From assembly GCA_965237955.1 (NCBI GenBank), contig OZ250169.1, forward strand, positions 3,136,001 to 3,200,000: a stretch of 64,000 nt of DNA. Reading direction: 5' to 3'. Shown here piece by piece: positions 1,508-4,647 of the stretch (positions are counted from its first letter, which is position 1; each line of letters opens with the position of its first letter). A model generated the notes under the pieces. The model was not told where the DNA came from. It ran no database searches and saw only the letters and a list, made by a program, of their open reading frames with translations. Origin of the DNA: Candidatus Marinacidobacterales bacterium. GTDB lineage: Bacteria; Acidobacteriota; Vicinamibacteria; Marinacidobacterales; SMYC01. Both the position numbers and the translations under genes were made by a program.

Positions 1508-1991
1508 TTAAGTGTTGGCGGCCAGCCCCTAACCGGTCTGCGTGCTAGAGTTTGAACCAGAATTCTGAAGACACAGTTCTCTCATCGTCAGGGCCGAGCC
1601 GAAGTGAAGAATCGCAGATGTCTCAATCCCGCATGTCCGTTGCGGGGCAAAGTCAGTTCCGGAAACATCGTTCGCCACGGATTCTACCGAACCAGGTCCG
1701 GGAAACGCCGTCGATACCGGTGCGGCGAGTGCGGAAAGACGTTCTCCTCGACGAAAGGCACGCTCTACTACCGTCTCCAACATCGAAGAGCTACTTTCGA
1801 TGGGGTCATCGCTCTCAGAGTCGAGGGCGTCAGCATTTCCTCGATTTCTCGGATCGAAGGGATTGCCTGGAACACCGTCGCCCGCTGGCTCGAGAAGGCA
1901 GCCCAAGTGTGTCGTCGATTCAACCACTTGATGGCGGAAGCACCGATTTATGGCCTATTTCAAAAGGGCCGAGTTTTTGCGCAGGACGGGG

Positions 1992-2231
1992 GTCGAGAAG
2001 CTGCGCACCGAGCCGGTGTTCGTGCTCTGGATCGAAAACAAGGAGTTCCAGTGGCTCGAGCCGACCATCACCACCGAGCAGATCGCCGAGCTTGGCGGCT
2101 GGGATCCGTCGAAGGGCGTTCAGCAGATCGACCTTGCCACGAACAAGGCACACACACTCAAGCCGGGTGAAATCGTCGATCTGAGGGATATCAAGACCTT
2201 CGTGAAAAAGATCGGCTGGCGACGTGGCTGA
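1992..2231 (+). pseudogene. ubiquitin-like (multi-ubiquitin/beta-grasp) protein, 5'-truncated by a mobile-element end
   Basis: WIENKEFQW..PTITTEQIAELGG...LKPGEIVDL pattern typical of bacterial multi-ubiquitin domains. Ends in RRG and overlaps the start of the E2-like gene. Confidence 0.7.
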
Positions 2232-2635
2232 GCGCGAGCTCCGCCTCGAGGAAGAACACCGGCTGATCGCCACGGTCTTTCCAAGCGTCGTTCAGTCGGG
2301 GGATTGGTTCCTCATCCCGGACGACGCTCGGGCGACGCGGTACGGCTGGACTCTGGATCCGTTTCCGGTTGCGTTTCACGCACAGCCAGGACACCCGGGG
2401 CAGGTGCCATACGGTATATACGTGCCGTCCTCCGCACAGGCCGGCGGCCAAGTGCCGAACAACTTCAACGGCAACGCGAGCAATCGGCCGCCGTTCGAGG
2501 GGCAGTGGGGTGTTCTCTCCTGGCAGGGCGACGACCAAGGAATCCCCTGGGTCCCGGCGCAGCGGATTCGCGAGGGGGCCAACCTGTTGAACTTCCTCAT
2601 TCACGTTCGACGAGCGGTTCAAAGAAGGTGTCTGA
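2224..2635 (+). CDS. prokaryotic E2/UBC-like protein (1-nt frameshift at ~2600 near the C-terminus)
   Basis: WFLI..GW..VAF..PGHPGQVPYGIYVP...PPFEGQWGVLSW...W.P...GANLLNFL fits a prokaryotic E2 pattern. Removing one T at ~2600 gives ...LITFDERFKEGV* ending at 2635, overlapping the JAB start. Confidence 0.7.
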
Positions 2636-3176
2636 ATCCACTAAGGAACGGAGGCTCCGCTTCGAGAGCAAGGCGCATTACCAAGCATTTCGCTCCGCGC
2701 TCGTGTGCGGAGCATACGCATACTATCGCGAGCAAGGGGCTTTTCTCTTCGCGTCCCCGGCGGCAAATGGAGAGCTGGACGTCGTTGATGTCGCCGTGCT
2801 CAAGACGGCCGATTTCGTTATGCAGTCGGCCGGCTACGTGGAGCTGCACGACGATGCGCTCCAGGAGATGATCGTCCGTGCGCATAGGACGGACACCGCG
2901 CTGATGGAGGCTCACTCGCACCCCCTCGCGGAAGGGCCTCGGGTGCGTTTTTCGTCCTTCGATTGCGAGGGCTTGGCCGACATCGGGCCGCAGATGTCGT
3001 GGCGACTTCCAGGCCGGCCCTACATCGCCTTGGTCTTAGGTCGGGATGCGTTCGATTCCCTTTACTGGGAAGGTCGAGAGCGAAGGCCTCGGGGCTCCGT
3101 GGACCTTGTCGTCGCCGGGCAACTGCTACGCGCGAGTCGTGAATCCGAGCGCTCTTGGGGGCGAGACCATGGATAG
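2628..3176 (+). CDS. JAB/JAMM metallopeptidase (deubiquitinase-like)
   Basis: E in REQGAFLF plus HSHP...FSSFD (HxH-x-S-x2-D JAMM motif). The GTG start overlaps the reconstructed E2 stop. Confidence 0.85.
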   Translation: MSESTKERRLRFESKAHYQAFRSALVCGAYAYYREQGAFLFASPAANGELDVVDVAVLKTADFVMQSAGYVELHDDALQEMIVRAHRTDTALMEAHSHPLAEGPRVRFSSFDCEGLADIGPQMSWRLPGRPYIALVLGRDAFDSLYWEGRERRPRGSVDLVVAGQLLRASRESERSWGRDHG

Positions 3177-3978
3177 GTTCGACAGGCAACGGAAGATCTT
3201 CGGAGACGAGGGACAGAAGCGCCTGCGCGCCGCGACGGTTGGTGTCGTCGGCGGGGGAGGCCTGGGCTCGTTCATAGTGCTCGAGCTTGCCTATCTGGGG
3301 ATTGGGAAGATCCTAATTGTCGACCAGAAGCTGCTCAAGTGCTCGAATCGGAACCGGTTGGTGGGTGCTTGGGCGTCGCACCCAGACGGGACGCCCAAGG
3401 TCCAGCTACTACGCGACCTCGCGGGACTGATCGACTCCAAGATCGAGATCGAGCTGGTACAGGACGGTGTCGAAAGCTCCGATGCACAAGCCGCACTCGC
3501 AAGCGTGGACATCGTTGTGGGATGCGTCGACCACGATGGCCCTCGGTTCGTGCTGAACGAATTCTGCTGCAAGCAAGGTCTGCCGCTTATCGACGCGGCA
3601 AGCGATACAGTGCATGAAAAGGACAGGGTTCTCTTCGGAGGGCGGGTTTGTGTCGCAACGCAGGAGACGGGCTGCCTCGCGTGCTTCAAGGTGTTGGACC
3701 AGAACGAGCTTCAGGACTACTTCGCTTCGCCACAGCAGCGGACTGACCGGGGTGCGATCTACGGCGTGCCCGAGAGCGCCCTGGCCGGTGGCGGTCCGTC
3801 GGTGGTCACGGTCAACGGAGTGGTAGCGTCGATCGCGGCGACAGAATTGATGGTGTTGGTGACCGAGATCCGTGCTCCCATCGCGCATCAGGACTGGCGT
3901 GGCCATGAGGGTTGCCTGCTTCGTGTTGTCGACCGCGAGGAAGGCTGCTACTACTGTGGCTTGCGTCCTGTTGATTAG
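3169..3978 (+). CDS. ThiF/MoeB-family E1-like adenylyltransferase
   Basis: RFDRQ, VGGGGLG, SNRNR, PKV, GCVD and the Zn-binding pair CLAC/CYYC. The ATG overlaps the JAB stop. Confidence 0.92.
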   Translation: MDRFDRQRKIFGDEGQKRLRAATVGVVGGGGLGSFIVLELAYLGIGKILIVDQKLLKCSNRNRLVGAWASHPDGTPKVQLLRDLAGLIDSKIEIELVQDGVESSDAQAALASVDIVVGCVDHDGPRFVLNEFCCKQGLPLIDAASDTVHEKDRVLFGGRVCVATQETGCLACFKVLDQNELQDYFASPQQRTDRGAIYGVPESALAGGGPSVVTVNGVVASIAATELMVLVTEIRAPIAHQDWRGHEGCLLRVVDREEGCYYCGLRPVD

Positions 3979-4062: not shown

Positions 4063-4647
4063 GCCGTCCTGTGCCAAAACTCGGCCCTTTTAACTGAAAG
4101 GGATGTCCGAGTCTATGTCAGAATCAGCGGCACAGCGGCAGCGACACCTGTGCTCCGCAAAAAGTCGATCCGGCGTTGATTACGTGGTTTAGACCTGCCA
4201 TGCTCGGCTGCCTTGTGCCGGTCGACCCGACGGCGCCACCGGCGTCTTAGGAACGTGGAGAGGCTCGCTCTTGCGACTGTTTTCGAATATCCGGTCTATT
4301 GTTCTGGACGCCATCGCGTTCGCTCGCAACCTATGCCGCTCGCGCCGCGCCCTCGCCGCAGAGAACTTTTTCCTTCGGAAGCAGCTCACGTTCTTTGTCG
4401 AGCGTAAGCAGGCTGTGCTCCGCAAAAAGTCGATCCAGCGTTGATTGCGCGGTTTAGACCTGCCATGTTCAGCTGCTTTCGCTCCGATCGACCCGACGAC
4501 GCCACCGGCGTCTTATGAACGTGGAGAGGCTCCCTCGGGCCAGACGATTGTAAAGCCTACGGCCCTTGGCCCGGTCGCGAACACAGACACTAAGCTGCTG
4601 ATTTATAGTCTATTTCAAAAGGGCCGAGTTTTGGCACAGGACGGGGG
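4063..4647. repeat. cluster of orphan mobile-element ends
   Basis: CCGTCCTGTGCCAAAAC end at 4064. Two TGTGCTCCGCAAAAAGTCGATCC ends at ~4149 and ~4414. A ~105-bp TIR copy at ~4540-4645 matches 56840-56943. Confidence 0.8.

Follow-up and report, generated by a model that had tools for sequence, protein, structure and literature searches.

The window analysed here is a stretch of 64,000 nucleotides from Candidatus Marinacidobacterales bacterium (contig OZ250169.1, positions 3,136,001 to 3,200,000), and near its start lie four genes that resemble a bacterial ubiquitination-like (Bub) operon, encoding a ubiquitin-like protein (Ubl), an E2-like protein, a JAB/JAMM peptidase and an E1 adenylation enzyme (Table 1). 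The four frames run on the + strand between positions 1989 and 3978 and overlap by 8 bases at each junction, in agreement with the initial annotation, which had described four translationally coupled genes from the DNA letters. Its reading of the key motifs held as well. The Ubl frame ends in IGWRRG; the E2 contains WGVLSW and no Cys up to a frame break, and P0005, a natural intact relative that is 96% identical to the window E2, is also Cys-free; between CLAC and PSV, the loop of the E1 contains YG but no Cys. All metal-binding and catalytic residues of the JAB protein (E35, H96, H98 and D112) are present. The E1 is a single-domain protein of 269 amino acids (aa) with no IAD or CYS domain and with a four-Cys zinc site (C169, C172, C260 and C263). 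Pfam gave no match for the window E2, and no score was obtained with PF14462.

Table 1. Operon features and adjoining mobile-element sequences, in window coordinates
Feature	Position	Strand	Remark
Ubl 3' remnant (BubA-like, last beta-grasp domain)	1989..2231	+	Multi_ubiq 25.7 bits, above cut-off
E2-like gene (Prok-E2_E / BubB-like)	2224..2635	+	frame break at 2600/2601
E2 Tyr63 (PYG motif)	2410..2412	+	in the column of the Asp that partners the catalytic Ser of Type I Bub E2s; marks the branch
E2 Ser99 (LSW motif), predicted Ubl acceptor	2518..2520	+	aligned to the Ser of the WSRH/FSWH motif
JAB/JAMM zinc peptidase (BubC-like)	2628..3176	+	Prok-JAB E=0.003, below cut-off
E1 adenylation enzyme (BubD-like), single-domain	3169..3978	+	ThiF 123.6 bits
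E1 Tyr198 (IYG motif), predicted first Ubl acceptor	3760..3762	+	conservation across homologs
Orphan 45-bp terminal repeat from an insertion sequence of 1,430 bp	1945..1989	.	adjoins the cut Ubl gene; repeat copies genome-wide
Non-autonomous derivative of the 1,430-bp insertion sequence, 581 bp	4064..4644	.	28-bp perfect inverted ends; just downstream of E1

The use of Tyr/Ser chemistry by Bub pathways has already been published (Ye, Gong, Chambers and Corbett, bioRxiv 10.1101/2024.11.21.623953; hereafter, the Bub preprint). According to that preprint, the Y370F and S333A/H335A mutations abolish Bub conjugation, the catalytic Ser of the E2 is accompanied by helper residues (His and Asp, or Lys and His), and every Bub operon is said to possess BubE (DUF6527/PF20137). 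Type I Bub (6E.1/DUF6527; Citrobacter sp. RHBSTW-00271) comprises BubAB, BubCD and BubE (PDB 9ea4, 9ea5, 9ea8, 9eae and 9eav), and Type II Bub (6E.2; E. coli ZDHYS365) comprises BubA, BubBD and BubE.

A word-seeded search recovered 85 E2 homologs and 257 E1 homologs at E≤1e-40, of which the best 120 were listed, and a profile search of 50%-identity representatives for the E2 recovered 308 proteins at E≤0.001, of which the best 150 were listed. From genomes and metagenomes we took 43 loci (L001-L043). All four genes stood in the same order in 28 of the 43; the remainder were 14 short contigs and L003, which is cut like the window copy. Because the same order recurs in this way, the gene arrangement is not due to chance. 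In 17 of 35 loci (many being near-duplicates), a single frame encodes both Ubl and E2, and a plasmid of Ca. Tenderia electrophaga (CP013100.1; Tel_16805/16800/16795) carries the set as a Ubl3-E2 fusion, a JAB gene and an E1 gene. JAB-E1 fusions occurred in 6 of the 120 listed E1 homologs, and JAB and E1 were always separate in the fetched loci that hold both. These Ubl-E2 and JAB-E1 fusions repeat the architecture of Type I Bub, suggesting that the genes are tied functionally. Two stand-alone Ubls, at L026:2541-2798 and L040:2-508, have a short extension past the Gly (KRGAR, RRGRTLR) and would therefore need processing by the JAB peptidase. The family is sparse: none of 400 further genomes from this phylum had the operon, and no member was found in viral contigs.

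The E1 carries its proposed acceptor without exception. Tyr198 and Gly199 were conserved in 89/89 aligned E1s, and the YG motif was present in all 114 crossover loops that could be delimited among the 120 listed homologs; a stray Cys occurred in 3 of these 114 loops, at positions that were not shared. Asn62, Arg63, Lys77 and Asp121, which belong to adenylation, were invariant in the aligned E1s (n=89), as were the four Cys of the zinc pattern. The E1 structure was predicted with a local distance difference test score (pLDDT) of 91.8, and of 57-76 in the crossover loop; in a Foldseek search, the model matched Citrobacter BubCD (9eav) best, with a template-modelling (TM) score of 0.81, followed by ThiF (0.77). 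We then built a maximum-likelihood tree of 37 E1 rows from which the loop columns had been removed (of 47 rows, 10 had been excluded because they were long branches or near-duplicates). Two MoeB/ThiF-like proteins served as a distant outgroup for rooting, and motif-sharing relatives stood in for Citrobacter BubCD. The 21 E1s with the IYG motif formed a clade (97/97), and the other 14 Bub-like E1s in the tree were its sister group (98/94). Identity was ~28-32% to the nearest BubE-linked E1s and ~20% to BubCD. PADLOC and NCBIfam gave only generic matches for the E1, below cut-off.

We observed a similar pattern in the E2. Ser99 was found in all 45 sequences that came from the loci or were close homologs, and 139 of 141 representatives without a gap at this position had it too; the representatives are <50% identical to each other, and neither alignment (45 close sequences, 150 representatives) contained a conserved Cys column near it. 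Single-sequence E2 searches of PDB and Pfam returned nothing, and BubB was reached only by the wider profile: against PDB, the E2 family profile matched Citrobacter BubB best (E=0.005), followed by the E2 UFC1 (E=0.69). Four remote members (L012, L031, L036 and P0248) scored above the Prok-E2_E cut-off, and a profile-profile comparison with seven canonical Prok-E2_E proteins gave 96.6% (E=6e-10). In this comparison, and in a joint alignment with FSWH-type E2s that served as intermediates from BubE-linked operons, Ser99 corresponded to the Ser of WSRH, position 101 to its His, and Tyr63 to the Asp. A Tyr occupied the Asp column in 124 of 150 representatives. Among the 135 of 150 that could be scored at all three positions, Tyr63 occurred without the His in 112 and with it in 2, and Asp was accompanied by His in 21/21 (Fisher p 1e-22). 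On an E2 tree of 141 rows and 134 columns, with the trait columns kept in, all Tyr-type E2s fell on one side of a branch (support 99). The pattern amounts to a single change on the tree and one independent pair, so it is a clade marker and not evidence of co-evolution. We also considered His57 as a replacement catalytic His; it was invariant in the 85 close E2 homologs, but the remote members have Tyr or Phe there (His in 17/150), and we rejected it. The Asp/His-type E2s nearest to the Tyr branch (P0301, P0320, P0330, P0333, P0334 and P0357; PDNF...FSWH), some of which are fused to a Ubl ending in KRG, likely represent an intermediate state.

BubE was sought with a profile built from seven DUF6527 proteins, for which leave-one-out controls recovered 7/7. 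It gave 0 matches in L001-L043, L058 and the window, where the sequence downstream of E1 covered at least 1 kb in 22 loci and at least 2.2 kb in 15, and a Pfam scan of 42 downstream open reading frames (ORFs) found none either. As a criterion for Bub membership BubE is partly circular, because the published set was gathered by DUF6527. For the nearest plasmid E1s (28-32% identity), DUF6527 lies downstream, sometimes behind a phosphotransferase gene.

The branch shares with Type I Bub the order Ubl-E2-JAB-E1, a multi-beta-grasp Ubl ending in Gly, an E2 of the Prok-E2_E type with an invariant Ser and no Cys, an E1 of one domain whose crossover loop has an invariant Tyr and lacks Cys, Ubl-E2 and JAB-E1 fusions in some members, and regulators similar to CapH/CapP. 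It differs in having no BubE, a variable residue at the equivalent of His335, Tyr63 at the equivalent of Asp299, an E1 Tyr within an IYG motif in a shifted and longer loop, E1 and E2 clades of its own, JAB and E1 genes that are mostly separate, and a four-Cys zinc site kept in the E1. With Type II Bub it has in common the Cys-free Tyr/Ser logic and a three-domain Ubl resembling 9cd2. However, Type II Bub, as described in the Bub preprint, has an E2-E1 fusion, Lys and His beside the Ser, and usually no JAB; the branch shows none of these, possesses JAB, lacks BubE, and draws its E2 from another family.

The initial annotation had likened the operon to both Bil and Bub systems, and this was borne out in part. 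Like Type I/II Bil (BilABCD), the operon has four separate genes in the order Ubl-E2-JAB-E1, an E1 zinc site, a link to CapH/CapP and no E3. In contrast, the enzymes are Bub-like: BilD is a large IAD-AAD-CYS E1 with Cys417 and BilB has Cys138 and His151 (Chambers et al., bioRxiv 10.1101/2023.09.26.559546), whereas the E1 here is short and lacks the IAD and CYS domains, and the E2 lacks Cys and belongs to the Prok-E2_E family. Operon class 6e of Iyer, Burroughs and Aravind (2006; PMC1779556; PF14462, PF14452) also combines a polyUbl, a Cys-less E2-like protein, JAB and E1, but the JAB-E1 fusion and metal-binding protein described for it are not typical of the branch. By the published membership tests, the branch is neither Type I Bub, nor Type II Bub, nor Bil. 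What is new relative to published Bub is the loss of BubE and of the His/Asp pair of the E2, with a conserved Tyr in the Asp position. A BubE-less, His-less branch was not described in the portions of the literature consulted, including Gong et al. (bioRxiv 10.1101/2024.11.21.623966) and Ledvina et al. (bioRxiv 10.1101/2022.03.31.486616), and neither 'Type III' nor 'Tenderia' matched as a term in Table S1 of the Bub preprint, from which the journal version could differ. The operon thus appears to be an undescribed branch, as the initial annotation had suspected in calling it a possible uncharacterised variant.

Taken together, we favour the view that the window carries a probably inactivated copy of a conserved operon, and that this operon belongs to a distinct, BubE-less branch of Bub whose members likely pass Ubl through Tyr and Ser esters instead of Cys thioesters. 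The Cys-independent Tyr/Ser chemistry proposed at the outset is consistent with the conservation of Tyr198 and Ser99 and with the lack of a conserved Cys at either site. By analogy with Bub, the pathway would probably begin with adenylation, proceed through an ester on Tyr198 and another on Ser99, and end on the lysines of targets; JAB would be the sole peptidase. A stress or DNA-damage signal might cause an IrrE-type peptidase to cut a helix-turn-helix (HTH) repressor and so turn the operon on. JAB would free the terminal Gly of Ubl where this is fused to the E2 or tailed, and an E1 dimer would adenylate this Gly and then take Ubl onto Tyr198. Ubl would next move to Ser99 of the E2. This Ser has no His or Asp helpers, and Tyr63 probably positions or activates it; the E2 would then hand Ubl to target lysines without an E3. 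In the absence of BubE, JAB probably removes the tags too. Since the branch has neither BubE nor the helper residues of the Ser, its chemistry has likely been rewired. The pathway likely serves to defend the cell against phages or other mobile elements, or else to respond to stress.

Several observations weigh against this view. BubB is killed when its Ser and His are mutated together, and this His is missing from the E2 of the branch, so that Ser99, being unassisted, might be a weak nucleophile. Position 99 is Ala in one representative (P0245), and the HMMER local alignment pairs Ser99 with BubB Ser337 instead of Ser333. A Foldseek search of PDB with the E2 model (pLDDT 86.7) returned only antibody noise and no BubB, and therefore the assignment of a UBC fold rests on sequence profiles. 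In the E1, Tyr198 lies 2-3 alignment columns later than BubCD Tyr370 and 12 residues before the loop-closing Pro, compared with 9 in BubCD, in a longer loop, and Cys119 is kept in 88/89. Many of the loci are near-duplicates or short contigs. Lastly, in the Bub preprint none of the Bub operons tested so far was seen to protect against phages.

Other accounts of the same genes have to be weighed. We regard as rather unlikely a relay from Tyr to Tyr, in which Ubl would pass from E1 Tyr198 to an aryl ester on E2 Tyr63, with Ser99 as a helper or second acceptor, Tyr63 having taken over from the Asp-His pair at the origin of the branch. Were it true, this would be the first E2 to work through a Tyr, in a Cys-free cascade that needs no His base. 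It is unlikely that the E2 is a catalytically dead adaptor (UEV/RWD-like) and that the E1 alone activates Ubl, as an adenylate or Tyr ester, and transfers it to E2-bound targets, Ser99 and Tyr63 being kept for structure. The loss of both Bub E2 helper sets (His and Asp, Lys and His) and the variable position 101 are what a dead adaptor would lead one to expect, Ser99 stands among invariant Trp residues that could be structural, and the 2006 survey (PMC1779556) labelled this E2 family inactive. However, that label has been overturned for BubB in the Bub preprint, and Ser99, which occupies the register of BubB Ser333, varies less across the representatives than would be expected of a purely structural small residue.

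The absence of BubE could also mean that this is an ordinary Type I Bub operon with BubE encoded elsewhere and acting in trans, its motif changes being drift. The four domains and their fusions are those of Type I Bub, Table S1 of the Bub preprint includes Type I operons with separate Ubl and E2 genes, and two DUF6527 genes do occur elsewhere in the window's genome. Yet both lie beside Type II-like E1s, one of them in a full operon with a different Ubl tail; the E1 and E2 each form their own clade, the loss of Asp and His is fixed in 112 of 114 Tyr-type representatives, and the E1 is only ~28-32% identical to the nearest BubE-linked E1s. We regard this account as quite improbable. We consider it highly improbable that a conserved Cys forms thioesters, or that Ubl is a sulfur carrier similar to MoaD/ThiS. 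The E1 does score well against ThiF/MoeB models, and Cys119 is nearly invariant; but all of these scores are far under the equivalog cut-offs, and Cys119 belongs to a core GCxD strand motif common to MoeB, ThiF and BubCD, of which BubCD still needs Tyr370. The remaining four invariant Cys form the zinc pattern, and the genome has a separate MoeB with a loop Cys. The initial annotation had named a tie of homologous operons to sulfur-carrier biosynthesis as grounds for abandoning its reading; we found no sulfur-transfer or cofactor genes among the 89 neighbouring ORFs scanned (42 downstream, 47 upstream).

We next examined the state of the window copy. It shows 89.6% DNA identity to the intact relative L002 over 1,986 bases, and this similarity starts at ~1989, right after the 45-bp terminal repeat. 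A mobile-element end has indeed removed the 5' end of the Ubl gene and its promoter, as first proposed, although the homology begins at ~1989 and not at 1992. The repeat belongs to an insertion sequence that is 1,430 bp long and encodes an rve-type transposase (an rve_3 match was obtained on the relative's copy, L002:8272-9414); the 16-base core of the repeat has 265 copies in the genome, mostly orphan ends, and the matches listed include at least 13 near-full-length copies of the element. Intact relatives have a three-domain Ubl (233-236 aa in L001 and L002), which in these two loci matches the solved three-domain Bub/Bil Ubls 9d59, 9cd2, 9d5b and 8u38 (E 2e-24 to 7e-22), and a divergent pair of HTH and IrrE-type peptidase genes upstream. 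The window copy has lost two of the three Ubl beta-grasp domains, the promoter and this regulator pair, and none of the missing parts was found in the rest of the window's genome. An in-frame ATG at 1950, inside the repeat, could yield a 93-aa chimera with a one-domain Ubl, but even so the window E2 would stay broken: an extra base (+1) at 2600/2601 replaces its last helix with an unrelated tail, giving 215 aa in all compared with 136 aa in intact relatives. The lost helix includes Arg131, which is kept in 127 of 128 non-gap representatives.

Both lesions were compared with public contigs from four of 23 listed runs (X1, X2, X3 and X5). The extra base was present in contigs of X2 and X3, which come from two studies, and absent from those of X1 and X5, so that both alleles occur in public contigs at 2600/2601, near where the initial annotation had proposed a check of reads; X1/X2 may be the source sample, and independent support for the frame break comes from X3 only. 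A sequencing error was ruled out by the two studies as the cause of the break. The junction of the repeat and Ubl was also found in contigs of X1 and X2, and a contig of 361 bases from X5 is identical to the window over 1989-2270 and then runs into intact Ubl sequence. Because the public contigs contain all of these, we conclude that both lesions are real alleles and that an intact allele of the same lineage exists. The window copy is very probably inactive, as had been suspected, and, as a decaying allele, is of value only as a pointer to the branch. Its E1 has Lys at residue 54 (window 3328-3330), where 82/89 homologs have Asp or Glu and 6/89 have Lys; either drift within the lineage or additional decay might account for this. 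Other mobile remnants in the window are an IS200/IS605-type tnpA element (853-1510) and a transposase fragment (1506-1927), and operon homologs are cut beside such elements in L003 and at C1:401736 too.

Upstream of the operons, we scanned 47 of 73 candidate ORFs from 17 distinct loci, omitting shadow frames and duplicate loci. An IrrE-type peptidase was found in 12 of the 17 (11 by Pfam, and L011 by direct similarity) and LexA in one; the Bub preprint treats IrrE/HTH pairs as stress switches similar to CapP/CapH. The neighbouring genes included those for type I restriction-modification subunits, AbiEi, HNH, Schlafen, RadC and an SNF2 helicase, and it is from this gene context that we infer a role in phage defence. 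In L016, L018, L019, L022, L023 and L029, a recurring divergent set of three genes lies upstream of Ubl, encoding a protein of ~220 aa (one weak match to extracytoplasmic function sigma factors), a protein of ~141 aa that belongs to no Pfam family, and an IrrE-type peptidase. The set may constitute a regulator other than CapH/CapP.

Further Bub-like operons came to light during the searches. Three plasmid loci, L059, L060 and L063 (Rhizobium, Deinococcus and Bradyrhizobium), are Type I Bub-like operons with FSWH-type E2s and carry a 'phosphotransferase' gene (~480-530 aa) between JAB-E1 and DUF6527, of which no mention was found in the portions of the Bub preprint consulted. The genome of the window holds a seemingly complete Type II Bub-like operon at G000:C1:132109-133989 (-) (L045), with a single-domain Ubl ending in TDQS and having no terminal Gly, an E2-E1 fusion and DUF6527. 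A second Type II-like E1, at G000:C1:401736-402557 (+) (L046), is cut on its 5' side by the same insertion-sequence end, and its DUF6527 gene (403806-404237, +) is parted from it by another mobile element. Two more operons, at C1:3062867-3065024 (-) and C1:696188-698620 (-), consist of Ubl, a small E2-like protein and JAB-E1, with no DUF6527 match nearby. Their Ubl tails are EPGPAS and GSTPVA instead of Gly, and the expected strand of each E2-like protein contains a Ser. Their E1s have a loop Tyr and form a branch of their own with L055 (100/100). BubE-less relatives of Bub are thus of several kinds.

The rule that a ubiquitin-type cascade must use Cys was overturned by the Bub pathways, whose authors attribute the reactivity of the E2 Ser to its helper residues. 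In more than 100 clusters at 50% identity, the branch described here keeps the Ser with neither helper set and has fixed a Tyr, and it is a natural test of what drives oxyester transfer. Because Bub operons were collected through BubE, the family has been under-counted. The branch lacks BubE, the inhibitory protease that is the signature of Bub systems, and has, in CP013100.1, a compact four-gene plasmid form, so it may offer an easier system in which to find the targets of Bub conjugation and its biological role.

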